A DNA stretch of 24,000 nucleotides from Prescottella agglutinans (GTDB lineage: Bacteria; Actinomycetota; Actinomycetes; Mycobacteriales; Mycobacteriaceae). Location: positions 33,226 to 57,225 of the forward strand of contig NZ_RKLP01000014.1 of the NCBI RefSeq assembly GCF_004011865.1, in the 5' to 3' direction. The notes beneath the pieces are model-generated. The model was given only the letters and a program-made list of their open reading frames with translations, was not told where the DNA came from and searched no databases. Below, in pieces: positions 537 to 16,775 of the stretch. Both the position numbers and the translations under genes were made by a program. The number at the start of each line of letters is the position of its first letter. Within the stretch, counting starts at the first letter, position 1.

Positions 537-2252
537 CTACGGAGCGCTCCCCTCCCCGGTCAGCGCCGCCTGCACCCGTGCGGTGTCGTCGTCGGACCAC
601 CCTTCCGGCTGCAGAATTCGCGCCCACATCCCGGCCGCTTCCGGGCCGTACGAATGACCGTGCCCGGCCGGGACGTCCGCGGAGAACACCATGTCGAGCG
701 TCACCTGCCAGAAGGTGACGAACGGCATCCACGTCATGTTCGGGTCCACGTCGCGGCCCCGCGGTTCCTTCAGCCAGTCGGGCTCGTTGAAGAGCAGGCT
801 CGGCGACCACCACACGATGGGGTCGCTCGCGTGCTGCCAGTACACGATCCGCCGCGGCTTCCACGGCGTACCGAGATCGAGGTCCTCCGGGTCCGACGCG
901 AACCGCACCGACGCGCCGTCGTCGACGACGGGCAGGATCTCGGGCGAGCCGGAATCGCGGGCGGCGGTCACCTCCTGCCACTGGGGCGTGAAGTTCGGGG
1001 TTCCCACCCACAGACCTCCGTCGACGCGCGCGGCCATGTCCTGATAGCCGGCGAAGGCATTCTGGCCGCCGTAGGAGCCGAGGCTCTCGCCGAACACCAC
1101 CAGCTTCGGCCTGGTTTCGACGGGAAGATCGATCCACCGCGCGAACACGGCGTTGAAGAGGGCCCGTCCGGCCACCTGCGGGGTCTCCCGGTCGGCGATG
1201 AAGGCCAACGGGCTCGGCAGGAAGGAGTACTGCATGGACGCGATCGCGGTGTCGCCCGCTTCGATGAACTCGAGCGACGACGCCACGTCCTGGTTCACCC
1301 AGCCGCGGCCCGTGGTCGTATTGACCGCGAGGACTTTTCGTTCCCACGCCTTCGTCCGATCCAGTTCCTCGACGACCAGATCGGCGACGCCTGCGACCGA
1401 GTCCGCCGACTCGCGGCCGGCATAGACCCGGATCGGCTCCTCGGCGGGACGTCCGGTCACCGCGGTGATGTCGGCGGCACTCGGTCCGCGGCCGACGAAC
1501 GTGCGCCCCTCCTGCCCGAGGGTGTCCCACGCCTGCGCGGACGCCGGCGACCCGCTCCGTTCGGGCACGGTCGGCTGTTCGACGCCCTCCGCAGTCGCGG
1601 TGTCGGCACCCTTGAAGCTCCAGTTCGCGAAGGCGATCAGGCCGTTGTACAGCGCGCCGTTGACGACCAGGACCGCGAGCACGACGACCACCACCAGTCC
1701 CGCCACGTTCGCGGCGGGGCGGGGCACCACGCGCCGGGCCACGGCGATGAGCCTGCGGGTCCCCAACCGGATCCCCCGCGACGCCTCGAGCAGGACGAAC
1801 CACACCACGAGAGCGATGAGAGCCACCAGCAGGGTGTTCGCCTGGTTGTTGCGCTCGATACCGACGAGGTCGCGGACGTAGTTCTGCCACACCGCACCGA
1901 GCACCAGGAACACGGGGACGAGGATCACGGCGGCGGCGCCGAGGATCCACCAGCCGATCCGCCTGGTACGCGCCGACCACGCCGGTTGCACGCCGCACGA
2001 GCGGACCACCCACGCCGCGAGACAGCCGACGCCGTATCCCGCGGCCACCGAGATGCCGGTCGCGACACCCTGCAGGTACCAGGCCCGGGGCAACAGCGAC
2101 GGGCTGATCGACCACGTGAAGAAGACCAGCGCCACCGCCAACCCGACGGGGTTCGCACGGCGCAGGTAGGCCCGGAGTCCGGCCCAGCGGCCGGAGTCCG
2201 CCGGAGGCGGGTTGGCAGAGCTGTTGTCGGCCCGCTCGGGAGCTATGGTCAT
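537..2252 (-). CDS. Membrane-anchored alpha/beta-hydrolase family protein (multi-TM N-terminal half, hydrolase C-terminal half)
   Basis: ORF track 537..2888 (-). I trimmed the start to the ATG at 2252 ([12 protein letters not shown]...) because the upstream ~210 codons are Arg/Pro-rich and overlap the divergent small gene. There are several hydrophobic segments ([75 protein letters not shown]). The C-terminal half has a GESLGSYGG nucleophile elbow (GxSxG). Confidence 0.8.
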
Positions 2253-2357
2253 GCGCCGAACGATAGATGCCACACCGAGCGGTCTGTAGACCTGACCCCG
2301 GCACGGCGTGTACACCGGAACTGCGGGGCACTCCCGCGGCACCGTTCGGAGGTGGAC

Positions 2358-2564
2358 ATGTCCGGCATCGCGAGCAAGTTCGACAAGGCATTCGAGTCCA
2401 GGTCGGTCGACGACCTGGCCGACGCGCCCGTGACCGCACTGCGGGGGCTGAGCGAATCCGACGCCGAGCACCTGCGGGCCGCATTCGGGATCAGCACGGT
2501 CCGCGATCTCGGCACGAACAGGTTCTTCGTCTGGGCCCAGGCGATCGCCAGGCTCGCCGAATAG
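2358..2564 (+). CDS. Small hypothetical protein (68 aa), function unrecognised
   Basis: This is the tail of track ORF 654..2564, read from the ATG at 2358 ([68 protein letters not shown]). GGAGG at 2349-2353 sits 4 nt upstream. The composition is protein-like, unlike the Arg/Pro-rich upstream part of the ORF. It is divergent from the hydrolase gene. Confidence 0.55.
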
Positions 2565-3023
2565 CCGACACCGGCGCCCGCGCCTTTCGGATCGTGCGGG
2601 GTCCCGGCGCGCCCGCCTCGGCGGCACACCGCAGCACGCGTCCGTTACCACGGATTCGCCCGCAATCTCGCGCGCCACGCCGATCGCCCGGCTTCGGATT
2701 CCCGCGATTACCGCGCGTCGGCCAAATTCTCGAGGTAGCTTTCCACTCACCCGCTGCCCCAGCACCCCGGCAGTACCGGGCATCTCGGAGCCACCCCGGA
2801 ATACCGGTGGCTTCTTCCTGATCACTTCACCTTCGCAGTCAGTCCGCGCCTGCCGGACCGATGAGCAAGGCCGGCTCCGGACACCCATTCGCGCGACACC
2901 ACTTGTGCGACTTGATTTTCCGAGATTCTTCCTCGCTCACGACATGCGCACTTCGCAACGCCGCGAACCGTACGCTCCACCACCGGTCCGAGCACACTCG
3001 CCTTCTCGGTAAGGGGTATCGCA

Positions 3024-4361
3024 ATGCTTTTGGGGGATACGAAGCCCGGCAACGCCGGCACCGCCCACACGGGCCTGCTCGAAAAGAGCTATATCGCAAC
3101 AGGATTCAAGTTCGACGTGGCGATCGTCGGTTTGGGGTACGTCGGACTACCGACGTCGTTGGCCTTCCATGCCGCCGGATGCAGGGTCCTCGGCATCGAC
3201 GTCAGCGAGGAACGACTCGACGTCGTCCGACGACAACGCGCCGATCTCGTCGACGCGGATCGTGAGCGCCTCGCCCACGCACTCGAGGACGACGGTTACG
3301 AGACCACCAGCGACACCGCGCGCCTCGCCGAGGCCGCCGCGGTGATCGTGTGCGTACCCACCCCGGTCGACGAGCACCTCACGCCGGAACTCGGGATCCT
3401 GCGCAGGGCATGCAGGTCCGTCGTCGAGCATGCCGTTCCCGGCCAGGCGCTGATCCTGACGTCCACGACCTACGTGGGCAGCACCCGGGACCTGCTCGCC
3501 ACCGAACTGAACGCGCGCGGCTTGACGGTCGGCACCGACGTGTTCGTCGCCTTCAGCCCGGAGCGCATCGACCCGGGCAACGACCGGTTCACCCACGAGG
3601 AGGTTCCGCGCGTCGTCGGAGGCGTCACGCCGGCGTGCACGGATGCCGCGACCGCGGTTCTGCGCCGCTACACGAAGAACGTCCACGGGGTCGATTCGAC
3701 CGACGCCGCCGAGATGACCAAGCTCGTGGAGAACACCTTCCGAGCCGTGAACATCGCGCTCGCAAACGAATTCGCGGAGATCTGCCGATCGCTGCGTCTG
3801 GACGTGATGGGCGTGATCAACGCTGCGGCGACGAAGCCCTACGGGTTCATGCCGTTCTTCCCCGGGCCGGGGGTCGGCGGCCACTGCATCCCGTGCGATC
3901 CGCACTACCTGCTGTGGCAGTTGCGCAAGAAGCGGCTGAGCACTCCGCTCATCGAGCAGGCGATGAGCGGCATCGCGGCCCGACCCCACCAGGTCGCCGA
4001 ACGCGCCCGGCAGACGCTGTCCGAACACGGCCGCGGGATCGTCGGCGCACGCGTCCTGGTCGTCGGCATCTCCTACAAGCCCAACGTCGAGGATCTGCGG
4101 GAATCGCCGGCGTTGGAGATCATCGCCGAACTCGTCGAGATGGGCGCGGACGTGCGGTACCACGACCCGAACTTCCCGGTCCTGACCCTGTCCGACGGCA
4201 CCGTCCTCACCGACGTCGCCGACCCGGGAGCGTTCGAGGCGGATCTGGTGATCGTCCACACCGTGCACGACGAGGTCGATCTCGGCTGGCTCGAGACGGC
4301 ACGGGCGGTCCTCGACACCACCTACCGACTGGATCGCGTTCCGAGTCGAGTCCCGCTGTAG
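3024..4361 (+). CDS. Nucleotide-sugar dehydrogenase (UDP-glucose/GDP-mannose dehydrogenase family; possibly a UDP-N-acetylhexosamine dehydrogenase of TviB/WbpO/WecC type)
   Basis: It has a Rossmann motif VAIVGLGYVGLP, a catalytic-Cys motif GGHCIPCDP and the C-terminal signature ISYKPNVEDLRESPA. AAGGGG (3011-3016) lies 7 nt upstream of ATG 3024. An in-frame GTG at 3117 (MAIVGLGYVG) is an alternative start. The substrate cannot be assigned by eye. Confidence 0.85.
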   Translation: MLLGDTKPGNAGTAHTGLLEKSYIATGFKFDVAIVGLGYVGLPTSLAFHAAGCRVLGIDVSEERLDVVRRQRADLVDADRERLAHALEDDGYETTSDTARLAEAAAVIVCVPTPVDEHLTPELGILRRACRSVVEHAVPGQALILTSTTYVGSTRDLLATELNARGLTVGTDVFVAFSPERIDPGNDRFTHEEVPRVVGGVTPACTDAATAVLRRYTKNVHGVDSTDAAEMTKLVENTFRAVNIALANEFAEICRSLRLDVMGVINAAATKPYGFMPFFPGPGVGGHCIPCDPHYLLWQLRKKRLSTPLIEQAMSGIAARPHQVAERARQTLSEHGRGIVGARVLVVGISYKPNVEDLRESPALEIIAELVEMGADVRYHDPNFPVLTLSDGTVLTDVADPGAFEADLVIVHTVHDEVDLGWLETARAVLDTTYRLDRVPSRVPL

Positions 4362-4393
4362 CGAACGCCCCGAATCCGCGACGAACGAAGGGA

Positions 4394-5404
4394 ATGCGCA
4401 CGATGAGAACCACAGTCACCGGAGGGGCCGGATTCATCGGCAGCCACCTGGTCGAGTACCTCCTGCGGCAGGGAGACGAGGTGGTCGTGCTCGACGACCT
4501 GTCGACCGGGCGACTCGCCAACCTCGCATCGGTTGCCGACGCCGACGGTTTCCGCTTCGTGGAAGGGTCGATCCTCGACCGCGCCACGGTCGACAGCGTG
4601 ATCGCGGGCACCGACCGGGTGTTCCACCTCGCGGCCGCGGTCGGCGTCCGGTTGATCGTCGACCGCCCGCTGGACAGCCTCCGCACGAATATCCACGGCA
4701 CCGAGAACGTCCTCGACGCATGCCGCTCCGCCGGATCCGTTCTGCTGCTGGCGTCGACGAGCGAGATCTACGGGAAGAACACCTCCGATGCCCTGTCCGA
4801 GGAGTCCGATCGAATCCTCGGTTCGCCCCTCACCGCTCGATGGACGTACGCCGCCGCGAAGGGGATCGACGAGGCGTTCGCCCACGCGTACTGGCGCGAG
4901 TTGGGACTGCAGGTGGCGACAGTTCGCCTGTTCAACACCGTCGGCCCGCGGCAGACCGGCCGATACGGGATGGTCGTCCCGACGCTCGTCGGACAGGCAC
5001 TGCGAGGCGAACCGCTCACGGTGTTCGGGGACGGACTGCAGACCAGGTGCTTCTCGTTCGTCGAGGACGTGGTGCCGGCGATGGTCGCAATCGCCGAGGA
5101 GCCCGCCACGTACGGTCAGGCCTTCAACCTCGGCGGGGCGCGTGAGATCTCGATCCTCGAACTCGCGGAGCGGGTGATCGAGGTGCTGGGCTCCGACAGT
5201 CCGATCACTCTGGTGCCGTACGACCAGGCGTACGCCCCGGGGTACGAGGACATGCGTCGGCGGGTGCCCGACAACCGGCGGGCCCGCGAACTGGTGGGCT
5301 TCGAACCCGTCACGCCGCTCGACGAGATCATCGTGCGTGTCGCCGCGGGACTGCCGGAGACGGACGCGCACGCGGTCCGTGAACAGGTGGTGGCGCGCCG
5401 ATGA
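4394..5404 (+). CDS. NAD-dependent epimerase/dehydratase (extended SDR; nucleotide-sugar 4-epimerase or decarboxylase type)
   Basis: This is the C-terminal part of track ORF 3350..5404. It reads MRTMRTTVTGGAGFIGSHLVEYLL (GxxGxxG) and has a YAAAK (YxxxK) catalytic motif and LFNTVGPRQ. Start is ATG 4394 or ATG 4403; 4403 has better spacing to GAAGGGA at 4386-4392. The stop overlaps the next gene's start (ATGA at 5401-5404). Confidence 0.85.
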   Translation: MRTMRTTVTGGAGFIGSHLVEYLLRQGDEVVVLDDLSTGRLANLASVADADGFRFVEGSILDRATVDSVIAGTDRVFHLAAAVGVRLIVDRPLDSLRTNIHGTENVLDACRSAGSVLLLASTSEIYGKNTSDALSEESDRILGSPLTARWTYAAAKGIDEAFAHAYWRELGLQVATVRLFNTVGPRQTGRYGMVVPTLVGQALRGEPLTVFGDGLQTRCFSFVEDVVPAMVAIAEEPATYGQAFNLGGAREISILELAERVIEVLGSDSPITLVPYDQAYAPGYEDMRRRVPDNRRARELVGFEPVTPLDEIIVRVAAGLPETDAHAVREQVVARR

Positions 5405-6465
5405 CGCATCGCCTCACGCGCCGGGAAGGTCCACGGACGTGCATGACCGTCGCGCTCGCGGCGACGGCCGCGCTCTCGCAGCTCAATTCGGACGCCTACC
5501 TCGCCCGTCCGCCGGAGCTGCCGCTGGTGATCGGTGCGATTCCGTACTGGGACCGGAGTGCCGCACTGATGTCGACGTACACCCACGTGCGATACCTCGA
5601 CATCGTCTCGCCCTGGTCGTACTCGGTGGCCGCCGACGGGACGGTGGCGGCCACCTCGGGATCGGACCTGGATGCCGACTCCGCGATGGCGACCCGGCTG
5701 GGCGCCAGCAACATCCGAACCATCCCGACGATCACGAACACCACCGCCGGGGAGTGGGATCGTGACACCGTGGCATCGGTCCTGTCGGATCCGAGCCTGC
5801 GTGGCGCGCACATCGACGCGCTGACCGCGCTGGTCCGCGAGCACGGGTTCGACGGGGTCCAGATCGACTACGAGAATCTGCTGTCCGCGGATCGTGTCGG
5901 CTTCTCGACGTTCGTCGGCGAACTGGGCGCGGCACTTCACCGGATCGGCCGGGTCCTCCACGTCGCCGTACACGCCAAGCCGAACGACGCCGGCTACGGG
6001 CCGCACAACGAGGCGCAGGACTACGCCGCCGTCGCCCGCGGCGCCGACAAGGTGATCGTGATGGCGTACGACCGGCACTGGGCGACGAGCACCGCCGGGC
6101 CCATCGCTCCGTACGACTGGGTCGAGGAGGTCCTGCGGTACGCGATCACGCAGATCCCGCGCGAGAAGCTGGTACTCGGCGTCGGGTTGTACGGCTACGA
6201 CTGGGTCGGTTCGTCCGCCACTCCCCTCACCTGGACCCAGGTGATGTCGATCGCAGCGGCGCAGAAACCCCTGCTGTCCTGGGACGAGACCAGCAGGTCG
6301 ACCCACTTCGCTTACATCCTCGACGGCATCCTGCACGAGGTCTGGTTCGAGAACGCGCGCAGTGTCGAGGCCAAGATCGACCTCGCACGCCGGCACGGGC
6401 TCGCGGGTGTCGCGCTGTGGCGCCTCGGCGGGGAGGACCCGTCGATCTGGGGACTCGGCCCGTGA
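5401..6465 (+). CDS. Glycoside hydrolase family 18-like protein (chitinase/cortex-lytic-like) with variant catalytic motif
   Basis: ORF 5401..6465. FDGVQIDYE aligns to the GH18 DGxDxDxE motif: Glu and the adjacent Asp are kept, and the middle Asp is replaced by Gln. MAYD, GLYGYDW and GVALWRLGGED are typical GH18 barrel strands. The gene is translationally coupled to the epimerase. The start could instead be ATG 5443 (MTVALAATAAL). Confidence 0.8.
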   Translation: MTHRLTRREGPRTCMTVALAATAALSQLNSDAYLARPPELPLVIGAIPYWDRSAALMSTYTHVRYLDIVSPWSYSVAADGTVAATSGSDLDADSAMATRLGASNIRTIPTITNTTAGEWDRDTVASVLSDPSLRGAHIDALTALVREHGFDGVQIDYENLLSADRVGFSTFVGELGAALHRIGRVLHVAVHAKPNDAGYGPHNEAQDYAAVARGADKVIVMAYDRHWATSTAGPIAPYDWVEEVLRYAITQIPREKLVLGVGLYGYDWVGSSATPLTWTQVMSIAAAQKPLLSWDETSRSTHFAYILDGILHEVWFENARSVEAKIDLARRHGLAGVALWRLGGEDPSIWGLGP

Positions 6466-6525
6466 CCGTCGAGGCGACCTGTCGATCGACACGACCCTGT
6501 TCCCACCCGCATCGGAGGATCAGCC

Positions 6526-8313
6526 ATGTGCGGAATCATCGCCTGCCGGACCGCCGGTCCGGCCCTCGACTATCTGCTGCCGGCCCTGAAGCGACTCGAG
6601 TACCGCGGCTACGACTCCGTCGGCGTCGCGGTCCGGACCGGTGACGGCGACATCGCGCGACTCCGGACGATCGGGCGGATCGGCGCGCTCGAACAGCAGG
6701 TCACGGAGTGGTCCGGCCCCGAACTGGACGGACTCGGGATCGGACACACCCGCTGGGCCACGCACGGCGGCGTCGACGAGCAGAACACCCACCCGCATCT
6801 CGACTGCACCGGGCGGATCGCGCTGGTGCACAACGGAATCATCACCAACGCCGACGAACTGGCCCGGGAGCTCCGTGCGACCGGCCACCGGTTCACCTCC
6901 GAGGTCGACAGCGAGGTCGTGGCACACCTCGTCGAGGACGATCTCGCGCTGTCGGGTGACCTGTTGACGGCGGTCCAGCGGACGGTGGAACGCCTGTCCG
7001 GGTCGTGGGCGCTCGCGGTACTCGAACAGGGAACCGGACGACTCGTCGCCGCGGCGCATCGCTCACCGCTGCTGATCGCCCGCGCCAACGGCGGCGATTT
7101 CGCCACCAGCGACGCGGCCGCGATCTCCGACTGGGTGGACGAGTTCCGCCCGCTCGAGGACGGCGACGTCGTGGAACTCGGCGAAACCTTCACGTGGAGT
7201 CGCCGCGGGCAGCGGTGTGCGCCTCCGCCGATCACCCGGCACACCTGGAATCCGACCGACATGAGCCTCGGCCGGCACACCGACTACATGAGCAAGGAGA
7301 TCGGCGAGCAACCCCAGGTCGCGGCGCGCCTGCTCGGACAGATCGGCGGTGGGGTGGCCGACGGATCGCTGTGGTCCGGGCTCGGCCTTCCCGACTTCGA
7401 TCGGCTGCGGGTGATCGCGTGTGGCACGTCGCTGCACGCGGGTCAGGTGATCGGCAACTGTGCCCGCGGGATCGGCGGGATACGTCCCACCACGACGGTC
7501 GCCAGCGAGACCCTCCGGGAACCGCTCGAGCCCGGCACGCTCACCCTTGCCATCAGCCAGTCGGGCGAAACCGCCGACGTACTACGCGCACTGGACCTGC
7601 AGGCACCCGGCGATGGCCCGGTACTCGCACTGACCAACTCCTCCCATTCCACCTTGGCGCGTCGCGCCGACGCGGTCCTCCCCTGTTCGGCCGGACCCGA
7701 GATCGGCGTGGCCGCCACGAAGACGTTCGTGTGCCAGGTCATCTCCGGTGTCGCACTGGTGATGTCGGCGATGGTCGCCAACGAACGGCTCTCGCCGGAC
7801 GCCGCCGCGCGCCTGATGCGGGCGCTCAACGGCGCCCCCGCACGGCTCGCAGCGGCAACCGAGACGGCGGAACGACTCATCCCGCCCCTCGTGGACGAGT
7901 TGACCACGGCGACAGGCTTCGTGTTCCTGGGCCGCGGTGCCGGCGTCCCCTACGCCGCCGAGGGCGCGCTCAAGCTGAAGGAACTGACCTACCGCTGGGC
8001 GGAACACCATCCGGCGGGCGAACTCAAACACGGGCCGCTCGCGGTGATCGAACCGGGGACCCCGGTCGTCGTCGTCGACCACGGAGACGCGCGGCTCGAC
8101 GCGAACGTCGCCGAGGTCCGCGCCCGCGGCGGACGCATCATCAGCATCGGCACCGAGGGGACCACGGTTCCCGTGCTGCACCCCGGTCCGGCTCCGTGCG
8201 GACCGTTGGAATCCGTCGTCCCGATGCAGGTCCTCGCCCGCGCACTCGCGCTCGCGCTCGGACGGGACGTCGACAAGCCCCGCAATCTCGCCAAGTCAGT
8301 GACCGTCGAATGA
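6526..8313 (+). CDS. glmS: Glutamine--fructose-6-phosphate aminotransferase (isomerizing), cluster-embedded copy
   Basis: It has the MCGIIA N-terminus (Cys2 nucleophile) and RLEYRGYDSVG. SIS-domain motifs CGTSLHAG and AISQSGETADVL are present, and the C-terminus is the canonical KPRNLAKSVTVE. GGAGGA (6514-6519) lies 6 nt upstream of the ATG. Confidence 0.92.
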   Translation: MCGIIACRTAGPALDYLLPALKRLEYRGYDSVGVAVRTGDGDIARLRTIGRIGALEQQVTEWSGPELDGLGIGHTRWATHGGVDEQNTHPHLDCTGRIALVHNGIITNADELARELRATGHRFTSEVDSEVVAHLVEDDLALSGDLLTAVQRTVERLSGSWALAVLEQGTGRLVAAAHRSPLLIARANGGDFATSDAAAISDWVDEFRPLEDGDVVELGETFTWSRRGQRCAPPPITRHTWNPTDMSLGRHTDYMSKEIGEQPQVAARLLGQIGGGVADGSLWSGLGLPDFDRLRVIACGTSLHAGQVIGNCARGIGGIRPTTTVASETLREPLEPGTLTLAISQSGETADVLRALDLQAPGDGPVLALTNSSHSTLARRADAVLPCSAGPEIGVAATKTFVCQVISGVALVMSAMVANERLSPDAAARLMRALNGAPARLAAATETAERLIPPLVDELTTATGFVFLGRGAGVPYAAEGALKLKELTYRWAEHHPAGELKHGPLAVIEPGTPVVVVDHGDARLDANVAEVRARGGRIISIGTEGTTVPVLHPGPAPCGPLESVVPMQVLARALALALGRDVDKPRNLAKSVTVE

Positions 8314-8336
8314 TCGACCGAACCGGAAGGAACAGC

Positions 8337-10004
8337 ATGAACAGTCGCGACTGGACACGGCCCTCCCGCCACGGAACTCGGCATCCACGTCAGCACCGAC
8401 CACCGACGCGACCCCGGCGGAACCGCGTGCTCGGGCTGATCAGCGTCCTGGCGCTGCTGGTCGGACCGGCCCTGATCGCGGTCGGTGCCGGCGCGCCCGC
8501 CGGTGCGGCAGGCGCACGCACCGTGGTGAGTCTGACGTTCGACGACGGTAACGCGGACGCGACCGTTGCTGCACAGACGCTGCAGGCCAACGGGCTCCGC
8601 GGAACCTTCTTCGTCCCGTCCGGCTACATCGATCAGCCCGGGTACATGTCACAGGCCGATCTTCACGGTATCGCCGCCGCAGGCAACGAAATCGGCGGCC
8701 ATTCCGTGACGCATCCGGACCTGAGCACGATGTCGCGGGACGAGGCGACCCGGCAGTTGTGCAACGACCGCGTGAACCTCACCAACTGGGGATTCCAGGT
8801 CACCTCGCTCGCCTATCCTTTCGCGTCGGCAACCGCCGAGACCGAATCGATCGCGCAGCAGTGCGGCTACAACAGCGCCCGTGGCCTCGGGGACGTCGAG
8901 ACCCGATTCGGGTGCGCCGGCTGTGATCTCGCCGAGAGCATTCCGCCGGCGAACCCGTACTACACGAAGGCTCCCGACCAGGTGGACAACACCTGGACCC
9001 TCGCCGACCTGCAGAACGTGGTCACCAACGCCGAGAACAACGGCGGCGGGTGGGTCCAGCTGACCTTCCACCACGTGTGCGCGAACAACTGCGATCCGGG
9101 TGGACTGTCGATCTCGCCGACGCTGCTCGACCAGTTCGCCGCGTGGCTCGCCGCGCGGTCGAGCAACAACACGGTGGTGCAGACCGTACGTGAGGTGGTC
9201 GGCGGCGCCGTCGCTCCGGCCGCACCCGGTCCCGTCCCGCCCGCACCGGCCCCCGGTGCCAACGGAGCACCCAACCCCGGCCTGGAGACGGTCGACGCGA
9301 CGACCGGACTGCCGCAGTGCTGGATGGCCGGCGGCTACGGCGTCAACACACCGACTTTCGCCACGGTGCCCGAGGCGCACGCCGGCAGTATCGCCGAGCG
9401 CCTGACGATGGCCGGCTACGTGGACGGCGACGCGAAGCTGCTTCCCAAGCTGGATCTCGGTGAATGCTCGCCGGGAGCCACTCCCGGACACACCTACGCC
9501 CTGAAGGCCTGGTACAAGTCCACCGCACCGACCCAGTTCGCGGTGTACTACCGGACCGCGATCGGCACATGGGCGTACTGGACGTCGAGCCCCTGGTTCG
9601 CGGCCGCACCCGAGTACACCGCCGCGGAGTGGACCACACCGCCGGTTCCTGCCGGTGCGACCGGAATCAGCTTCGGGCTGAACCTGTTCGGCAACGGGCA
9701 GTTGCACACCGACGACTACGAACTCCACGACACCGCCGCGACGCAGCCCTCCAGCGGGTCCTGGACCGTCGGGACCACCACACCGACCGCCCCCACCACC
9801 ACGCCCGGGCCGGTGACTGCGGCGGCCGGACATGCGAAGCAGAAGGCCGCACCCGGTAAGCACGCACCGGGCAAGCCCGCACCCGGTACCGATCGGAGCA
9901 GCCGACGGGGTCCGGCCGAACCGCCCGTCCACTACGTCCCGGGTCCGGACGAGCTGAGGCCCGGTCAGACCTTCCTGCCGGACGCCGGCAACCTCGGCGA
10001 GTAG
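8337..10004 (+). CDS. Secreted or membrane-anchored polysaccharide deacetylase (CE4 NodB domain) fused to a carbohydrate-binding-like beta-sandwich domain and a Pro/Thr/Ala-rich tail
   Basis: This is the tail of track ORF 7005..10004. It has a basic N-terminus plus a hydrophobic segment (VLGLISVLALLVGPALIAVGAGAPAGAAGA). CE4 motifs are TFDDG and GGHSVTHPD. After a PAPAPG linker comes a roughly 150-aa Trp/Tyr-rich domain (GHTYALKAWYKST...WAYWTSSPWF...GISFGLNLFGNGQLHTDDYEL), then TTTPTAPTTTPGP and APGKHAPGKPAPG. Start is ATG 8337 (GGAAGG 6 nt upstream) or ATG 8310, which overlaps the glmS stop (ATGA). Confidence 0.85.
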   Translation: MNSRDWTRPSRHGTRHPRQHRPPTRPRRNRVLGLISVLALLVGPALIAVGAGAPAGAAGARTVVSLTFDDGNADATVAAQTLQANGLRGTFFVPSGYIDQPGYMSQADLHGIAAAGNEIGGHSVTHPDLSTMSRDEATRQLCNDRVNLTNWGFQVTSLAYPFASATAETESIAQQCGYNSARGLGDVETRFGCAGCDLAESIPPANPYYTKAPDQVDNTWTLADLQNVVTNAENNGGGWVQLTFHHVCANNCDPGGLSISPTLLDQFAAWLAARSSNNTVVQTVREVVGGAVAPAAPGPVPPAPAPGANGAPNPGLETVDATTGLPQCWMAGGYGVNTPTFATVPEAHAGSIAERLTMAGYVDGDAKLLPKLDLGECSPGATPGHTYALKAWYKSTAPTQFAVYYRTAIGTWAYWTSSPWFAAAPEYTAAEWTTPPVPAGATGISFGLNLFGNGQLHTDDYELHDTAATQPSSGSWTVGTTTPTAPTTTPGPVTAAAGHAKQKAAPGKHAPGKPAPGTDRSSRRGPAEPPVHYVPGPDELRPGQTFLPDAGNLGE

Positions 10005-10022
10005 CCGCGGCGTCCACCCATC

Positions 10023-10059
10023 GCCGACCGGGCCGAGGTCGGATCTCGGCCCGGTCGGC
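10023..10059 (+). terminator. GC-rich stem-loop (about 15 bp stem, 7-nt loop) between the deacetylase and lipoprotein genes; candidate terminator, attenuator or RNA-stability element
   Basis: gccgaccgggccga (10023-10036) is the exact reverse complement of tcggcccggtcggc (10046-10059), and one more G-C pair can form inside. It starts 19 nt after the deacetylase stop. No T-tract follows, which is common in high-GC actinobacteria. Confidence 0.5.
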
Positions 10060-10110
10060 ACCACCGGGGAGAAATCAGCTCGACAGGGAAACCAGATGGA
10101 GGAGCAGCGC

Positions 10111-10860
10111 ATGGCCATCAAAACCATCTCGGGCCTGCTCGGCGTCGCCGCCGTCGGCATCGCCGTCACGGGATGCGCCGCGGATGCGGCCCAACCCACC
10201 GCCGCCGACGGATACCCGTGGCACACGGACATCGTGGCGACCACCTTCTGGGTCGGCGAGATCTTCGATCCCGCTGCCGAGGACGGGAGCCAGGAGATGT
10301 CCGCCTACGACTCGAACTGGCTCGGGAGCTACGGCGGATGCGACGGTGTCGCCGTCGACGGGGCCTGCCGGACCGAGCCCCGCACCGCCGGCAACGGCTA
10401 CTTCCCGACGCAGATGACACCACGCGAGAACCCCTTCTACCTCGACCTGCCGTTCGACGACGTCAACGACGACGTCGCGTTCGAGCAGCGCGGTTCGGTG
10501 ATTCCCTGGGCCGACGAGGCGCCCTACCGCGATCACCTGTCGGATCCTTCGGTCAGCCTGATGAAGAACCGCTGGGTGCGGATCCGCAGCGGAGACAACA
10601 CCTGCTACGGCCAGATCCAGGATGCCGGGCCGGCGAACTACCACGATTCCGCGTACGTCTTCGGCGCGGACGACGCCAGACCCGCCAGCGACGAGTTCAA
10701 CGGCGCGGGCCTCGACGTTTCCCCGGCCTTGAACGGCTGCCTCGGGTTCAGCGAACTCGACGGCGAGAACGACCGCGTCGACTGGCAGTTCGTCGACGAC
10801 GGCGACGTCCCGCCCGGACCGTGGCGCACGGTCGTCACGACGAGCGGGGTCCGGCAGTGA
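10111..10860 (+). CDS. Putative lipoprotein of unknown function (C-terminal region shows weak RlpA/expansin-like double-psi beta-barrel motifs)
   Basis: Track ORF 10096..10860. I prefer ATG 10111 because GGAGGAG (10098-10104) lies 6 nt upstream. The signal peptide is MAIKTISGLLGVAAVGIAVTG|C with lipobox V-T-G-C. The mature part has TTFWVGE, NPFYLDLPFDD and NRWVRIRSGDNTCYGQIQDAGP...GLDVSPAL. That last segment resembles the DPBB consensus (xVxVxx..G.s..v.v.DrGP...iDLS.aa), but only at motif level. Confidence 0.7.
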   Translation: MAIKTISGLLGVAAVGIAVTGCAADAAQPTAADGYPWHTDIVATTFWVGEIFDPAAEDGSQEMSAYDSNWLGSYGGCDGVAVDGACRTEPRTAGNGYFPTQMTPRENPFYLDLPFDDVNDDVAFEQRGSVIPWADEAPYRDHLSDPSVSLMKNRWVRIRSGDNTCYGQIQDAGPANYHDSAYVFGADDARPASDEFNGAGLDVSPALNGCLGFSELDGENDRVDWQFVDDGDVPPGPWRTVVTTSGVRQ

Positions 10861-10909
10861 CCGATTCACCTCAACGTGTTCCTCTCCTTCTCGAGTGCAG
10901 GGGGTTTCG

Positions 10910-12277
10910 ATGTCGACAACTGTCCTGATCATGCTGCTGGTGTTCGGTCTCAACACGCTGTTCTGGACCACGGTGGGTCTGGGGCGGGAGGTCGCCTCCT
11001 GGTGGGTCCGGTGGCGCGGGAAACGTTCCGCTGTTCGGCCCGGCCCACCGCTCCTGACGCCGGCCGACGTGGCCGTGCTCGTGGCAGCCCACAACGAGGA
11101 ACTGGTGATTGCCGAGACGATCGCCTCCGCGACGTCGCTCGTGCCGGCCGCCAACGTCTTCGTCGTCTCCGACGGATCCTCCGACCGGACCGCCGATATC
11201 GTCCGCGCGGCGGGCGCACGGGTCCTCGAGCTGAGCCCGAACAGGGGCAAGGCCGGGGCACTCGCAGCGGGGATCGAGCACTTCGATCTGTGTGAGCGAT
11301 TCCAGGTGGTCACGATGCTCGACGCCGACACCCATCTGGCGCCCGACTACCTGACCACCGGGCTCGCTCAGATGTCCGAACCCGGGGTGGTCGCCGTCGC
11401 GGGGCGGGCGACCACGATCTCCGCGCCCGATCAGCTGACCCGCTTCGGGCGGCTCCTGGTGGCGTATCGGGAGCGGGTGTACGTCGCGGTGCAGTACCTG
11501 CTCAAGTACGGTCAGGCCGCACGCTGGGCGAACGCCGTCACGATCGTGCCCGGGTTCGCCAGCATGTACCGCACCGAGGCCCTGAAACAGATCGACGTGA
11601 GCGCGCCCGGCCTGGTCATCGAGGACTTCAACATGACCTTCGAGGTCCACGCCAAGCAGCTGGGCCGCATCGCCTTCCATCCCCGGGCCGCGATCGCCTA
11701 CACCCAGGATCCCGACAACTTCCGCGACTACGTCAAGCAGGTTCGACGCTGGGCACTCGGGTTCTGGCAGACGCTGCGGCGCCACCGACTTCACGTCGGC
11801 CGATTCTGGGTGGCATTGGCCGCGTATGTCGCCGAACTGGTGACCAGCAGTCTCCTGTTCGTTCTCCTCGTACCGTTGCTGCTCGTCTCCGTCGTCGCGG
11901 GGGTCTTCGGGAACGGCGCCGGGAGGTGGGAGCTGGCCGGTGTGCTGCCGCCCCAGGCAGTACTCCTCGGTGTACTGGTCCCCGATTTCCTGCTCACCGT
12001 GTTGGCAGCCGTCGTCAGTCGCCGCCCTCACTATCTGCTCTACGGACTGGCGTTCCCCGTCATTCGCATCGTCGACGCCGCAATGTGTCTGCGGACGATT
12101 CCGCTCGCGTGGCGCAGTCGAGACACCGGCGTATGGCGAAGTCCCACGCGCCGTTCCAACGCGAAGCACCGGGCCGGCACCGTCTCGGCGACACCTCTGC
12201 CGGTCACCGGCTCCAGCCGATCGCGACTGCACATCGTCGAGGACGACGGTCGCGAACCGCGAGGTGAGATCGCCTGA
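10910..12277 (+). CDS. Membrane-embedded processive family-2 glycosyltransferase (PgaC/IcaA/NodC/HasA/cellulose-synthase-like polysaccharide synthase)
   Basis: Track ORF 10895..12277. I prefer ATG 10910, with AGGGGG 5 nt upstream. It has an N-terminal TM segment (TTVLIMLLVFGLNTLFWTTV). The full synthase motif series is present: VAAHNEE, SDGSSDRT, NRGKAGALAAG, LDADT (DxD), PGFASMYR, IEDFNMT (ED) and KQVRRWALG (QxxRW). At least three C-terminal TM segments follow. Confidence 0.88.
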   Translation: MSTTVLIMLLVFGLNTLFWTTVGLGREVASWWVRWRGKRSAVRPGPPLLTPADVAVLVAAHNEELVIAETIASATSLVPAANVFVVSDGSSDRTADIVRAAGARVLELSPNRGKAGALAAGIEHFDLCERFQVVTMLDADTHLAPDYLTTGLAQMSEPGVVAVAGRATTISAPDQLTRFGRLLVAYRERVYVAVQYLLKYGQAARWANAVTIVPGFASMYRTEALKQIDVSAPGLVIEDFNMTFEVHAKQLGRIAFHPRAAIAYTQDPDNFRDYVKQVRRWALGFWQTLRRHRLHVGRFWVALAAYVAELVTSSLLFVLLVPLLLVSVVAGVFGNGAGRWELAGVLPPQAVLLGVLVPDFLLTVLAAVVSRRPHYLLYGLAFPVIRIVDAAMCLRTIPLAWRSRDTGVWRSPTRRSNAKHRAGTVSATPLPVTGSSRSRLHIVEDDGREPRGEIA

Positions 12278-12343
12278 CACCGCGGCACACCACCGGCACA
12301 CGGAAACACCACTTGTCCGCACTATACGTAAGGAACCTTCGCA

Positions 12344-12982
12344 ATGATCTCGAAGTCGACCAACGCACGCCGCCGCCGGGCCGCCCTGCCCGCGGCCACG
12401 ATCCTGACCACGGCCGGCGCCCTGCTCCTCGGGACCGCCGGCACGGCGACGGCCGCCGAACAGACCGCATCCACCCCCGCCGGCGCACTGACGGTGACCC
12501 TCACCAACGACGTCGTCGAGTCGGTTCCCAGCCTCACCATGATGCCGACGTCGAGCGAAGGCGTCGTGTCCGCCGCGGCCGTCGCCACTGCGACCGGGCC
12601 GGGCGCACAGGACATCACGGGCGGCACGCTCGACCTCGGCTATCAGGTCGGATGTGCTGTCGACGTCTCCGGCGGTGTGCAATTCGCGGTCGAGACACCC
12701 GCCGGTCCCACGCTCACGCTCTTCCCGACACCCGGAATCGGTATGAACTTCGGCGTCACGCCGTCGGTCCTGATCAATCCCAAGTTCGGTGTCAGCCAGG
12801 ATGTCTCGCTCGGCAAGCAGGTGGTGAACGGGCCCGACGCCGCGGTGTCGTTCGACGCGGTCCGCGTCAAGGCCGAGGGATGCATCGGTGGAGTCACGGT
12901 TCGTCCGTATGCGGTCTACACGGTGACGACCGCCCACGGGAGCCACTCGGTCGCGACGTACGGAAGTCCCCGCGCGCTCTGA
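12344..12982 (+). CDS. MspA-family mycomembrane porin
   Basis: ORF 12344..12982. The signal peptide is MISKSTNARRRRAALPAATILTTAGALLLGTAGTATA|AEQ. The mature part aligns by eye with M. smegmatis MspA: GGTLDLGYQVGCAVDVS against GTLELGYQIGFPWSLG, GGVTVRPYAVYTV against GGVLLRPFARLIA, and SVATYGSPRAL against SVTTYGEPWNMN at the C-terminus. AAGGAA lies 7 nt upstream of the ATG. Confidence 0.85.
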   Translation: MISKSTNARRRRAALPAATILTTAGALLLGTAGTATAAEQTASTPAGALTVTLTNDVVESVPSLTMMPTSSEGVVSAAAVATATGPGAQDITGGTLDLGYQVGCAVDVSGGVQFAVETPAGPTLTLFPTPGIGMNFGVTPSVLINPKFGVSQDVSLGKQVVNGPDAAVSFDAVRVKAEGCIGGVTVRPYAVYTVTTAHGSHSVATYGSPRAL

Positions 12983-13024: not shown

Positions 13025-13071
13025 CTCATTCGTCGGCGACTGACCTGGTCGGGATGAGATTTCGGAGAAAG

Positions 13072-13773
13072 TCACACGCGCAGTTCGAGCGTGACGATCG
13101 CTTCGGCGACCGCGTGCACGCTCGCGTTGTGCGACCGTGCGTGACGACGGATCAACTGGTAGGCGGCGTCGACGCCGATGCCGTTCGCGTTGGAGATGAT
13201 CCCCTTCGCCTGTTCCACGACGATGCGACTGGTGAGTGCCTGCTCGAGTTGCCCCGACAGACGCTGGAAGTGACTGACCGCCGACCTCTGGCTCAGGAAC
13301 ACCGATGTCATCTCGGCCAGGCAACCGACCATGGCGATCTCGTCCTCGAGCCAACGGCGCGGACGATCCGAGACCAGGACGAGTGCGCCGACGGAGCGTA
13401 GACCGTGCCGGAGCGGAAAGACCGCCAACGACACCACACCCGAGCGTCGCGCCTCGGCGACGAATTGCGGCCAGGCCTCGCGGTGATCGTCGACGGCGGC
13501 GATACGCAGAATGCTCCCGCGCGCGATCGCGTCCGCGCCCGGGCCGTCCGAAACCAGTTGCGCCAGGCGGTCGAGGGCGATCCCCGGCCCGGTCGACGTC
13601 GTCACCGTGGCCGTCGCGCCGTCGAGATCGGTCACGACGCCGCCGCCGGCAAGACCGAGAAGGCCCGAGACCAGTTCGACCAGACCCGTCAGCACCGCGT
13701 CCGTTTCGGATGATTCCGCCTGCAGTCTCGTGAATCTCTCCACGGCAACCGCGAAATGGCTTTGAACAGACAA
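13072..13773 (-). CDS. GAF and ANTAR domain-containing RNA-binding regulator (antiterminator-type)
   Basis: Track ORF 13072..13980 (-). The C-terminus LEQALTSRIVVEQAKGIISNANGIGVDAAYQLIRRHARSHNASVHAVAEAIV matches the ANTAR consensus (L..AL.SR..IeQAKGil......deAf.lLr..Sq..n..l..vA..iv). The preceding ~150 aa are GAF-like. I prefer the TTG start at 13773, which has a strong GAGGGGGG 7 nt upstream. ATG 13896 is the alternative, but the extra 41 codons lie in low-GC, non-coding-looking sequence. Confidence 0.85.
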   Translation of the reverse strand: MSVQSHFAVAVERFTRLQAESSETDAVLTGLVELVSGLLGLAGGGVVTDLDGATATVTTSTGPGIALDRLAQLVSDGPGADAIARGSILRIAAVDDHREAWPQFVAEARRSGVVSLAVFPLRHGLRSVGALVLVSDRPRRWLEDEIAMVGCLAEMTSVFLSQRSAVSHFQRLSGQLEQALTSRIVVEQAKGIISNANGIGVDAAYQLIRRHARSHNASVHAVAEAIVTLELRV

Positions 13774-14272
13774 TCGATAGCCCCCCTCATTCGAGAACTG
13801 AGGCTCCCCCGACAATCGAAGATTTCGGCACCCACCGGGACCCGCAGTGGCGTTTACACACTCGCGAGCCGTTCGTAATTCGTTCGAAATTCCCATGTTC
13901 ACTGTCGCTCTTCCGCTCCTTCGACCGCGGCCGCTCCCCCACGTGCGACCGACCCGATGCCTTCGACCCGACAGAAACACTTGCGCCAGAATGCTATCGC
14001 ACGCAGCCGAGATGCCGCCAGAGGACGACCTACGGTGCCGTATCGTTCACCCGGCCGTTCACCCCGACGCCGGCGATCTGCGATACCTGCACCAATCACG
14101 CCGAATATCCGATCCGATACACACATTCGGCACCCGAATTGGGATCCTATTTATTCGATCTTGATCAGTAAGATAAACGACAGACCGACAGTTCCCGCAA
14201 CCCGACGACAACGACATCTCACGCAAATGCAACGCCGACCCGGGGAAGACCGGAAGAGTTCGTTGCGTGCAG

Positions 14273-15280
14273 TCACGAATTGCTCTCGACGATCATCCCC
14301 GCGACCCCCGAACCCAGCGGGACCGGCGCACACACCGGGGCGGGCGCCGACGGGTCGAGTTCCCGCACCGCGAGCCAAAGCGAGAAGGGGTCGTACACCA
14401 TGTTGAAGTGCCCGCCCCGGTTCTCCGGACACAGGTCCTGCACCAGGATGTTCGTCGCACCTCGGTCCCGCAGCGCAATGTTGGTGTGGGGCTGGATCAT
14501 CTCGTCGTAGCGCGACCCGATGGTCGTGTAGGCGACGCCCGGAACGGTGTCGCCTCCCGCGTTGAGTGCGACGAGGAACGGCGATCCTTGCATCTGCTGG
14601 CTGATCGCCTTCGAGGTGAGCCCCTCGGCGATCCGGTCGGGATCCGGCAGCAGCCTCAGCAGCGGCACGATCCCGTACATCACCCCGCCGTAGGTCGGCG
14701 ACGCGATCCCGATCCAACGGCCCACGACGTCGGCGCCGCCCAACCGATTGACGAAGTACCGCGCCACGGTCGCGCCCTGGGAGTAGCCCACGAGGTCGAC
14801 CTCGGCAGCGCCGGTCGACACCCGGACCATGCGTACGAAGTCCGCGAGTTCCGTTGCGCTGCGAGCCATGTCGCCGCGCGCATACTTTCCGGGTTTGCCG
14901 TCCGCACCGTAGTTCGGAGCGAACACGCAGAACCCCCGGTCGGCGAGGATCGGAGCGAGCGCGGACCAGTCCGTGTAGGCGTCGGAGTCACTGCCGTGCA
15001 CGAGGACGACCGGGTTGGGGTGGCCCGGATCCGGTCGGCAACCGAAGTCGTTCGTCCCGGGCGGCGCGGAGTCCCGGTGCCGTTCGGCGTACCGCAGTGC
15101 TCCGGCGTGGCCGATCTGGATCGGGCCCGGATCTACCGGCACCACGTAATCGGGTCGCGTCGTGGACGGCGCCGGGGGCGCCGGCGACGCGGACGCCGCG
15201 GGCGGGGCGAGCACGGCCAGGCCGGCCGCAGCCACAACGGAAACTCCAGCAGCGAAGCGCCTCGTCACCCGATCCACCAT
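14273..15280 (-). CDS. Secreted alpha/beta-hydrolase, lipase/esterase family
   Basis: Track ORF 14273..15343 (-), trimmed to ATG 15280 with GGAGG 4 nt upstream. The signal peptide is MVDRVTRRFAAGVSVVAAAGLAVLAPPAASA|SP. Motifs are NPVVLVHGSDSD (oxyanion region) and the VDLVGYSQGATVARYF nucleophile elbow (GxSxG), as in small secreted actinobacterial triacylglycerol lipases. Confidence 0.8.
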   Translation of the reverse strand: MVDRVTRRFAAGVSVVAAAGLAVLAPPAASASPAPPAPSTTRPDYVVPVDPGPIQIGHAGALRYAERHRDSAPPGTNDFGCRPDPGHPNPVVLVHGSDSDAYTDWSALAPILADRGFCVFAPNYGADGKPGKYARGDMARSATELADFVRMVRVSTGAAEVDLVGYSQGATVARYFVNRLGGADVVGRWIGIASPTYGGVMYGIVPLLRLLPDPDRIAEGLTSKAISQQMQGSPFLVALNAGGDTVPGVAYTTIGSRYDEMIQPHTNIALRDRGATNILVQDLCPENRGGHFNMVYDPFSLWLAVRELDPSAPAPVCAPVPLGSGVAGMIVESNS

Positions 15281-15456
15281 GCACCTCCGTGACCCGCAGG
15301 ACTGCCAGCAGTTTCCATCAAGATCACTGCCGGGGCCGGCCACGCGCCAACCCGCCCGAATAACGAAAGTGGAACGAAATCTGCGCTGATCCGCTCACAC
15401 CCGCGACCGGCCCCATGGTGCAATGGGGCGAGTCTCCCGGACAGGAACGGTGCGGT

Positions 15457-16473: not shown

Positions 16474-16524
16474 GCGTCCTCGAGGTTGACAGTGCCCATA
16501 CCCGCTGGCACCCTCGACGTGCAG

Positions 16525-16688: not shown

Positions 16689-16775
16689 TTCCGACCGGAC
16701 GGTCACTGCCGAATGCGTGGTCGCCGCGAAACCCCTGCGTTGCATTGTCCCTGCGTCGCGTTGTCGACGAAATCG

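Follow-up and report, generated by a model that had tools for sequence, protein, structure and literature searches.

Synthase-dependent exopolysaccharides (cellulose, poly-β-1,6-GlcNAc (PNAG), alginate, Pel and hyaluronan) are major biofilm and surface polymers. The has operon pairs hasA, a small autonomous synthase, with hasB, a UDP-glucose dehydrogenase, and in the PNAG, Pel and fungal galactosaminogalactan (GAG) systems the polymer is tailored by pairs of a deacetylase and a glycanase. The polymerases of Pel and GAG are not known to be glycosyltransferases of the BcsA/hyaluronan synthase (HAS) type of family GT2, their deacetylases are PelA and CE18, and their hydrolases belong to GH166, GH114 and GH135. 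In a survey of synthase-dependent operons, Pel is the only system for which Actinobacteria are listed (PMC7112194), and Streptomyces MatAB was the sole characterised actinobacterial synthase-dependent case that turned up in our searches (PMC5972031). Here we describe a cluster of eight genes at positions 3024–12982 of a 24,000-nt stretch of Prescottella agglutinans DNA (contig NZ_RKLP01000014.1, positions 33,226–57,225, forward strand; hereafter the window). Protein sequences, structure models and synteny make it likely that this cluster is a synthase-dependent module for an extracellular amino-sugar polysaccharide.

A preliminary description of the window had stated that no system of such composition was known to be characterised in mycolate actinobacteria. 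That statement stood in a limited literature search: we found no published description of a homologous cluster, or of an N-acetylxylosamine (XylNAc) or xylosamine polymer in actinobacteria, in open-access text. The original elements of the cluster are a donor-sugar cassette resembling UDP-glucuronate decarboxylase (UXS) pathways and an orphan RlpA-like family coupled to the deacetylase.

The G+C content of the DNA is 65–75% per 1-kb window, and raw lists of open reading frames (ORFs) are therefore rich in artefacts. Genes were called by codon-position GC analysis together with inspection of start codons and Shine-Dalgarno sequences. The eight co-directional plus-strand genes were reproduced by codon-position GC at the positions given earlier, with tight spacing:

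3024–4361, plus strand: nucleotide-sugar 6-dehydrogenase of the WecC/Cap5O/TviB branch (three UDPG_MGDP_dh domains in Pfam)
4394–5404, plus strand: extended short-chain dehydrogenase/reductase (SDR) of the UXS type (Pfam Epimerase/GDP_Man_Dehyd)
5401–6465, plus strand: GH18 glycosidase of the YdhD/YaaH/SleL subgroup (Pfam Glyco_hydro_18, 104 bits)
6526–8313, plus strand: GlmS, glutamine-fructose-6-phosphate aminotransferase (TIGR01135, 533 bits)
8337–10004 (alternative start 8310), plus strand: CE4 deacetylase (Polysacc_deac_1, 70 bits, residues 61–179)
10096–10860 (start at 10111 in the public annotation), plus strand: lipoprotein of a family without annotation (no Pfam or NCBIfam match)
10910–12277, plus strand: membrane GT2 polysaccharide synthase (GT2 domain and motifs)
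12344–12982, plus strand: MspA-family porin with signal peptide (Pfam MspA, 119 bits)

Both ATGA sequences that had been proposed as gene overlaps are present, at 5401–5404 and 8310–8313. Use of the second is doubtful because the ATG at 8337 has a better Shine-Dalgarno sequence (GGAAGGA) than the start at 8310. No intergenic gap is longer than 106 nt, and those on either side of the synthase gene measure 49 and 66 nt. Terminator-like sites or hairpins were not found inside 3024–12982. These sequence features fit a single operon. Pfam and NCBIfam reproduced every earlier domain call except a CBM-like label on the deacetylase, whose C-terminal part is a conserved domain of no known family (no Pfam match even at E = 10) followed by a proline-rich tail. 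As had been noted, no Wzx/Wzy/Wzz, ABC-exporter or priming-transferase domain occurs in any scanned protein of the window.

The GT2, which matches a P. agglutinans GT2 at 100% identity, carries the full set of processive-synthase motifs first read from its translation: AAHNEE (residue 59), DGSSD (88), LDADT (137), EDFNMT (238) and QVRRW (277). Most residues of these five motifs are invariant in 57 homologs, including D88, D138, D140, E238, D239, Q277, R280 and W281, and the protein has a GT-A domain with the conserved D, DxD, (T)ED and QxxRW. Hydropathy predicts four transmembrane (TM) segments, one N-terminal and three C-terminal. The AlphaFold2 model (predicted local distance difference test (pLDDT) score 87.2, predicted template-modelling (pTM) score 0.85) has helices at 271–292, 298–333, 348–370 and 375–402 and shows a synthase-like fold, with a QxxRW interface helix followed by TM helices. 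Foldseek placed Chlorella-virus HAS first (E = 6e-15, TM-score 0.64, ~460 columns). Further top matches were Xenopus HAS1, BcsA and the chitin synthases Chs1/Chs2, from yeast, an oomycete and Candida, while soluble GT2 enzymes ranked below the membrane synthases. A sequence search of solved structures with the GT2 alone gave no match, and a profile of the family matched HAS and BcsA weakly (HAS, 27 bits).

Among curated models the best was PgaC_IcaA (TIGR03937), with 83.9 bits against a cut-off of 422.3 and a colinear alignment over model positions 24–406 of 407. The NodC and CelA models scored ~30 bits and the GlfT1 model 15 bits, and the PpgS model covered the N-terminal half only. The GT2 thus groups neither with non-processive nor with known cell-wall GT2 enzymes, because processive synthases top the fold search and the match to cell-wall models is poor (GlfT1) or partial (PpgS). 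As judged from curated hidden Markov model scores, a pairwise alignment with PgaC and the fold search, the GT2 is a separate family within the class of membrane-embedded processive synthases. Its fold and motifs agree with the synthase-dependent logic proposed at the outset and predict that it would serve as both core polymerase and translocase. The C-terminal motif G407-x-W409-x-S411-P412-x-R414-R415 is invariant and lies in a segment modelled with low confidence; this segment is presumably mobile and could be a gating loop, by analogy. We saw no PilZ or other cyclic di-GMP domain on the synthase.

A genome scan that took one genome per species yielded 551 GT2-encoding stretches, from which 80 loci were retrieved. 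Partner genes were counted in the 67 loci with complete 10-kb flanks, a partner being a gene within 10 kb of the GT2. The dehydrogenase was near the GT2 in 63 of these loci, the SDR in 64 (66–93% identity), the CE4 deacetylase in 60 and the lipoprotein family in 61, with all four present in 56. GlmS was found in 21 and the MspA porin in 2. Searches by tblastn with the window proteins and an independent clustering of ORFs agreed on this co-conservation, which goes far beyond chance and bears out the neighbourhood conservation on which the first interpretation depended. Since each of the four partners recurs in 60–64 of the 67 loci, the core module is dehydrogenase, SDR, CE4 deacetylase, lipoprotein and GT2, with GlmS as a frequent accessory.

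The loci come from Arthrobacter, Pseudarthrobacter, Cryobacterium, Leifsonia, Herbiconiux, Curtobacterium, Nakamurella, Arsenicicoccus, a Mycobacterium and metagenome-assembled genomes of Mycobacteriales. Gene order and orientation are heavily rearranged among them, yet the partners are kept. The system had been framed as one of mycolate actinobacteria, and that framing is too narrow: the module is widespread in Actinomycetota (Micrococcales, Nakamurella, Mycobacteriales and others). Contexts that we spot-checked in Rhodococcus globerulus, Amycolatopsis, Micromonospora and Aeromicrobium share most of the cluster genes. The R. globerulus locus has no member of the lipoprotein family within 10 kb, and the GT2 was not seen at the Micromonospora locus, where the contig is short. 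Lone paralogous copies of the GT2 occur at three loci.

The dehydrogenase scores 364 bits with TIGR03026, above the cut-off. Its best equivalog models, UDP-ManNAc dehydrogenase (218 bits) and TviB (155 bits), are both below cut-off, and the E. coli-type UDP-glucose dehydrogenase model gives 41 bits only. Its solved relatives are Cap5O (190 bits), the Pyrococcus UDP-ManNAcA dehydrogenase (172 bits) and CalS8 (128 bits), which we take to be a TDP-glucose-oxidising member of the same branch. By these sequence comparisons, the dehydrogenase is in the N-acetylhexosamine (HexNAc) branch of nucleotide-sugar dehydrogenases.

For the SDR, the best solved relative is human UXS1, a UDP-glucuronate decarboxylase (190 bits, 36% identity, 309 columns). 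The second-ranked distinct relative is PDB 8VR2, on which a literature search by code found nothing relevant; PelX is third (146 bits), and WbpP/WbgU (107–112 bits) and ArnA (~89 bits) score lower. In UXS and ArnA, the Glu of a T-S-E motif and the Arg of a Q-T-R motif mark decarboxylases and dehydratases, and the UXS literature assigns catalytic roles to Thr/Ser-Glu, Tyr-x3-Lys and the closing Arg. The SDR has all of these: its motifs T122-S123-E124, Y152/K156, N181-T-x-G-P-R186 and Q216-T-R218 align with the set in human UXS1. T122, E124, Y152, K156, N181, R186, Q216 and R218 are invariant in 65 of 65 orthologs, S123 is kept in 64 and T217 in 60. We predict that the SDR is a UXS-like, decarboxylase-type enzyme that would decarboxylate the product of the dehydrogenase.

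The pair had been likened to TviB/TviC or WbpO/WbpP, which would make the SDR a counterpart of TviC or WbpP. The scores do not support this: they are 155 bits against a TviB cut-off of 592 and 90.5 against a TviC cut-off of 760, with WbpP/WbgU well below UXS1. Because UXS1 is the nearest relative and the decarboxylase residues are kept, a pentosamine donor (UDP-XylNAc) is likelier than a 4-epimerised uronic acid. We tentatively read the two steps as UDP-GlcNAc to UDP-GlcNAcA to UDP-XylNAc, a sequence-based assignment that we would place a little short of an even chance. The pair might instead make UDP-GlcNAcA/UDP-GalNAcA or UDP-GlcA/UDP-Xyl, so that the polymer would contain uronic acid or xylose and not XylNAc. 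TviB does lie in the same broad branch as the dehydrogenase, as does the glucose-nucleotide dehydrogenase CalS8, and the high rank of PelX for the SDR (PDB 6WJ9–6WJB, presumably a UDP-GlcNAc 4-epimerase) points in the same direction. Set against these affinities are the TviB and TviC scores far under their cut-offs, the distance between WbpP/WbgU and UXS1, the invariance of the T-S-E Glu and Q-T-R Arg across all orthologs and the far lower scores of true UDP-glucose dehydrogenase models. We regard a uronic acid or xylose donor as somewhat unlikely. Whichever sugar the pair makes, the linkage of the two genes to the synthase is nearly as tight as that of the deacetylase, so their product is probably an obligatory donor and not a decoration.

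A paralogous dehydrogenase and UXS-like SDR (56% identity to the SDR of the cluster) were also seen on a Streptomyces sp. NBC_01001 plasmid (NZ_CP108712, 8563–10969). There they sit in a carrier-lipid-type cluster whose other genes are annotated as MraY-family, WecB/TagA-family, GT4, LCP-family and oligosaccharide-flippase-family, so that the two-gene cassette seems able to move between synthase-dependent and carrier-lipid-dependent pathways. Identity to the cluster SDR is only ~40% for plasmid genes with a canonical UXS annotation and 42–56% for dehydrogenase-adjacent homologs.

Some database sources name homologs of the GT2 "PgaC", and the cluster could be an actinobacterial PNAG system like PgaABCD, IcaADBC or MatAB, with the GT2 as PgaC/IcaA and the CE4 protein as its deacetylase. 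PgaC_IcaA is indeed the top curated model and aligns end to end, the GT2 is colinear with E. coli PgaC (27% identity over 306 aa), a CE4 protein is at hand, and MatAB shows that PNAG is made in actinobacteria (PMC5972031). However, the GT2 reaches only a fraction of the family cut-off, and the deacetylase has no significant alignment to E. coli PgaB past the TFDDG motif and no GH153 domain. No PgaD/IcaD-like small membrane gene is present, and no gap exceeds 106 nt. The dehydrogenase/UXS-like pair that accompanies the GT2 in 63–64 of 67 loci would be superfluous in PNAG synthesis, and a pentosamine lacks the C6 that a 1,6-linkage requires. Finally, the hydrolases are of GH18, which acts on β-1,4 HexNAc glycans, and not of GH20 or GH153. 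We consider a PNAG system improbable. As for the linkage, a β-1,4 chitin- or chitosan-like backbone is favoured over β-1,6 PNAG because GH18 recurs and the fold family of the lipoprotein acts on β-1,4 glycans; we judge this part of the reading to be evenly balanced.

Separately, we had considered a link to the PNAG-like antigen of Rhodococcus equi. This was dropped, as no P. equi protein is among the closest homologs of the GT2; other Prescottella species do appear among them.

Three of the gene products are predicted to act outside the cytoplasmic membrane. The CE4 deacetylase has a basic N-terminus and then a hydrophobic segment at residues 29–58, which together look like a signal anchor, and it keeps the CE4 residues D69, D70, H122, H126, H245 and H246. 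ORF clustering recovered 82 CE4 copies in 57 loci (among L001–L080), and many loci have two CE4 paralogs. Catalytic residues are replaced in about one third of the copies (H126 to L in 29, H245 to Y in 22, H246 to D in 28, D70 to G in 12). This pattern suggests that the degenerate second paralogs are inactive, possibly polymer-binding, deacetylase-like partners.

GH18 enzymes cleave β-1,4 bonds beside GlcNAc by substrate-assisted catalysis (CAZy). The nearest solved relative of the cluster glycosidase is B. subtilis YdhD (135 bits), and a SleL-type "cortical-lytic enzyme" and YaaH are also matched. Its Q154, D156 and E158, which form the Q-x-D-x-E catalytic motif, are invariant in 13 orthologs. 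This YdhD type is found in 13 loci, and a chitinase-like GH18 takes its place in 29 Arthrobacter-type loci; the two subtypes are unrelated, and GH18 of either one is present in 37 of the 67 complete loci. The chitinase-like protein, at 6935–8071 (minus strand) of locus L008 and in 28 other loci, has 378 aa, a membrane anchor and the motif IDFDIEG. Pfam does not see it, although it scores 173 bits with the exochitinase 9buf and also matches a Pyrococcus chitinase. We predict that the cluster glycosidase is an accessory processing enzyme.

The lipoprotein (lipobox VTGC, ~250 aa) belongs to a family without any Pfam or NCBIfam match even at E = 10 (40 members searched; noise only), and its profile matched no solved structure at that threshold either. 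The family has 2601 relatives at E ≤ 1e-3, with 61–100% identity among the 120 matches listed, and its alignment holds 75 invariant columns, many of them acidic. The AlphaFold2 model has a pLDDT of 73.7, with a core above 90 and a poorly modelled N-terminal extension of ~100 conserved residues. This core is predicted to be an RlpA-like double-psi beta-barrel. Its best fold match was to phage RlpA proteins (E = 2.4e-4), and Foldseek also gave weak matches to kiwellin, PA4485, expansin and barwin (E 0.01–0.1). The motifs DAGP ... GLDVSPA resemble what we take to be the DxGP ... DLS pattern of RlpA and expansins. In Amycolatopsis, Micromonospora and Aeromicrobium, which represent three other orders, the lipoprotein start overlaps the stop of the CE4 gene. 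The lipoprotein may cleave or otherwise handle the deacetylated polymer, by analogy with the deacetylase and glycanase pairs of PNAG, Pel and GAG systems. As a further observation, the family has 76 copies in 60 loci, and some loci have a longer paralog (~400 aa) just 3' of the GT2 (e.g., L008, 11513–12727, minus strand).

These same three proteins allow another interpretation, in which a glycan is the product of the GT2, dehydrogenase and SDR, whereas the deacetylase, the YdhD/SleL-type GH18 and the RlpA-like lipoprotein remodel peptidoglycan so that the polymer can pass through or be anchored. The solved relatives of the glycosidase are cortex-lytic and sporulation enzymes (YdhD, SleL-type, YaaH), the fold matches of the lipoprotein include RlpA, a peptidoglycan lytic transglycosylase, and the CE4 matches include the peptidoglycan deacetylases PgdA, PdaA and PdaC. 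Yet the GH18 of 29 loci is of the chitinase type, the tight coupling of deacetylase, lipoprotein and synthase across orders mirrors the tailoring pairs of PNAG, Pel and GAG, and a GlmS within the cluster suits bulk synthesis of a HexNAc polymer. We think it quite unlikely that the wall is the substrate of these enzymes.

The GlmS protein passes the TIGR01135 equivalog cut-off (418 bits) by a clear margin and has GATase_6/7 and SIS domains, and its homologs in other loci are 54–63% identical; R. globerulus and Aeromicrobium also have one. It is a bona fide GlmS, predicted to supply GlcN-6-P for UDP-GlcNAc. Together with the CE4 deacetylase and the GT2 it had been compared to rhizobial NodM/NodB/NodC. 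The enzyme classes are indeed the same, and the GT2 is small with few TM helices, as is NodC, so a Nod-factor-like pathway for short chito-oligosaccharide signals, rather than a polymer, has to be weighed. The likeness ends at enzyme class: NodC (TIGR04242) scores 31.1 bits against 550 and NodB (TIGR04243) 29.5 against 240, and no NodA-type acyltransferase is encoded in the window. NodB is cytoplasmic, whereas the CE4 protein has an N-terminal membrane anchor or signal, and the exported glycosidases and lipoprotein imply an extracellular substrate. We hold an oligosaccharide signal to be highly improbable.

For a synthase-dependent amino-sugar polysaccharide, we propose the following sequence of events. 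The cluster GlmS would raise the supply of GlcN-6-P and UDP-GlcNAc. The dehydrogenase would oxidise a UDP-HexNAc, most likely UDP-GlcNAc, at C6, and the SDR would decarboxylate the resulting uronate to a UDP-pentosamine, UDP-XylNAc; for both, the enzyme class is shown and the substrate inferred. The GT2 would then polymerise UDP-XylNAc, alone or with UDP-GlcNAc, and thread the chain through its own membrane channel, with no lipid carrier, flippase or ABC exporter taking part. Outside the membrane, the anchored CE4 enzyme would strip some of the acetyl groups, and the GH18 enzyme and RlpA-like lipoprotein might cleave the polymer, set it free or make way for it through the cell wall.

The preliminary description had proposed a partly de-N-acetylated HexNAc polymer that may contain uronic acid. 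An amino-sugar polymer that is deacetylated is the natural reading of GlmS, an exported and intact CE4 and a GH18 in one cluster; for the uronic acid, a pentosamine is likelier. A more specific proposal, which we regard as unlikely, is that the product is a β-1,4 "pentosamine chitin", either poly-XylNAc or a chain in which GlcNAc and XylNAc alternate, that partial de-N-acetylation turns it into a cationic xylosaminan, and that the lipoprotein family comprises new glycan-cleaving enzymes built on a double-psi beta-barrel and specialised for this product.

Several observations weigh against parts of this interpretation, which is drawn from sequence, predicted structure and synteny. The GT2 has only four predicted TM helices and no evident partner subunit, and its closest family model is that of PgaC/IcaA, which make β-1,6 linkages. 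The clade of the dehydrogenase includes CalS8, so the route may instead run from UDP-Glc through UDP-GlcA to UDP-Xyl, and the margin of UXS1 over the epimerase PelX is moderate for the SDR (190 against 146 bits). Confidence in the lipoprotein model is medium, with only weak fold matches in the PDB (E ≥ 0.01). All three extracytoplasmic families include peptidoglycan-active members and may remodel the wall instead. GlmS is absent from 46 of the 67 loci, and GH18 from 30.

The porin gene follows the synthase gene by 66 nt, which suggests that the two are co-transcribed. The protein is a clear member of its Pfam family (119 bits against 22.9) and scores 38.7 against 280 with the MspA equivalog model. 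An MspA gene adjoins the cluster only in the three closest relatives (L001–L003), which account for both of the complete loci that have one, and none lies next to the cluster in the mycolate genomes of R. globerulus or Mycobacterium sp. E2733. The porin was first presented as part of the system, which the comparison of loci does not support; it looks like a lineage-specific addition in the Prescottella clade, and export of the polymer through it is a guess without comparative support. The gene that converges with the operon is:

13072–13980, minus strand: GAF-ANTAR RNA-binding regulator of the antiterminator type (ANTAR 58 bits, GAF 41 bits)

It is conserved beside the cluster in the same three relatives only and is possibly a lineage-specific regulator. 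An Abhydrolase_9 membrane protein and a lipase were considered as cluster members and rejected, being adjacent in the closest relatives only. The start of the Abhydrolase_9 gene is probably near 2255 and not at 2888.

In other lineages, LuxR-type regulators (AAA_16 and GerE, ~890 aa) adjoin the cluster in ~48 Micrococcales loci, as found by ORF clustering, and in Aeromicrobium. Examples are at 13067–15718 and 354–3032 of L008, 11429–14128 of L005 and 190–2874 of L085. Their place is taken in the Amycolatopsis cluster by a two-component pair together with a GerE response regulator. From these genes, regulation of the cluster appears to be lineage-specific and transcriptional.

Upstream of the operon, ~770 nt on the plus strand (2256–3023) have no clear coding signal, yet the parts that align in L001 and L003 are 77–88% conserved, and L002 shares some of this conservation. 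It is highest in the block 2729–2815 (CTCGAGGTAGCTTTC...GCTGCCCCAGCACCCCGGCAG...GAGCCACCCCGGAATACCGGTGGCTTCTT), which forms GC-rich hairpins (z = -2.0); a U-rich run comes after the last hairpin, of which L002 has two copies. This block is found only in Prescottella/Rhodococcus loci. A search of 2200–3100 against Rfam gave no match, only sub-threshold noise. The region may be a leader or attenuator, perhaps tied to the neighbouring GAF-ANTAR protein.

Elsewhere in the window, positions 16521–16692 on the plus strand hold an M-box magnesium riboswitch (RF00380; 147.6 bits, gathering score 44), directly 5' of an MgtC gene and 3' of a CorA gene. Because the riboswitch spans these positions, the ORF called from 16647 starts too early, and translation of MgtC probably begins close to 16821. 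At the right end are three genes whose translations we read as priA, metK and coaBC. The ORFs read as priA (19320–21746, minus strand) and metK (21364–22782, minus strand) overlap by ~380 nt and have Arg/Pro-rich N-terminal extensions that look non-coding; this is probably an artefact of ORF calling at high GC, with the true starts of both genes further downstream.

The cluster defines a five-gene module with its own donor-sugar cassette and a conserved exported family that is annotated in no database. If our interpretation is correct, abundant soil bacteria would make a matrix or aggregation polymer that is new, and its monomer chemistry may be new as well. The interpretation would also give a function to an orphan family of lipoproteins with thousands of detected relatives, and a simple genetic handle on aggregation and biofilm formation in Arthrobacter, Rhodococcus and their relatives. 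"Pentosamine chitin", if real, would be a polysaccharide undescribed in any organism and, given the 551 stretches encoding the GT2, a common and overlooked matrix polymer of soil and plant-associated Actinomycetota.

Compared with known systems, the cluster shares with the PNAG systems (E. coli PgaABCD, staphylococcal IcaADBC and Streptomyces MatAB) a membrane GT2 with D/DxD/ED/QxxRW, an extracellular CE4, an associated glycosidase and synthase-dependent export without a lipid carrier. It differs in having neither PgaD/IcaD nor PgaA and a CE4 that is like PgaB in motifs only, and it adds the dehydrogenase/UXS-like cassette, the GH18 and the RlpA-like lipoprotein. MatB is a fused GT2-CE4 protein (PMC5972031), whereas the CE4 of the cluster is separate. 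With rhizobial Nod genes it has the GlmS, CE4 and GT2 chitin-oligomer synthase classes in common, and it differs in its signal-anchor-like CE4, its extracellular hydrolases and a product that is probably a polymer. The hyaluronan synthase of Chlorella virus is the best structural match of the GT2 model, and the class I has operon likewise pairs a synthase with a nucleotide-sugar dehydrogenase. Here, however, sequence similarity to the synthase is marginal and profile-based, a decarboxylase-type SDR comes after a dehydrogenase of the HexNAc type, and the polymer is predicted to be deacetylated extracellularly.

The donor cassette is closest in gene logic to two described pathways. In Bacillus cereus, UGlcNAcDH and UXNAcS give UDP-XylNAc (Gu et al. 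2010, as cited in PMC12407052), and the same two steps are proposed for IdnS2/IdnS3 in incednine biosynthesis (PMC11284099). Both share with the cluster a UDP-GlcNAc 6-dehydrogenase followed by a UXS-like decarboxylase, but their sugar enters another polysaccharide or a macrolactam glycoside and not the product of a GT2 synthase. The Pel and GAG systems (PelX/PelA/PelF; Uge3/Agd3/Ega3/Sph3) resemble the cluster in a dedicated SDR for an unusual HexNAc donor, PelX being among the closer relatives of the cluster SDR, in partial extracellular de-N-acetylation and in glycosidases encoded with the synthase; none of the PelA, CE18, GH166, GH114 or GH135 types is found in the cluster. Finally, the lipoprotein compares with RlpA and other DPBB_1 proteins, which its predicted double-psi beta-barrel core resembles in fold searches. 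It differs from them in having no Pfam DPBB_1 match and no SPOR domain, in its extra N-terminal part and in its genetic coupling to a CE4 deacetylase and a polysaccharide synthase.

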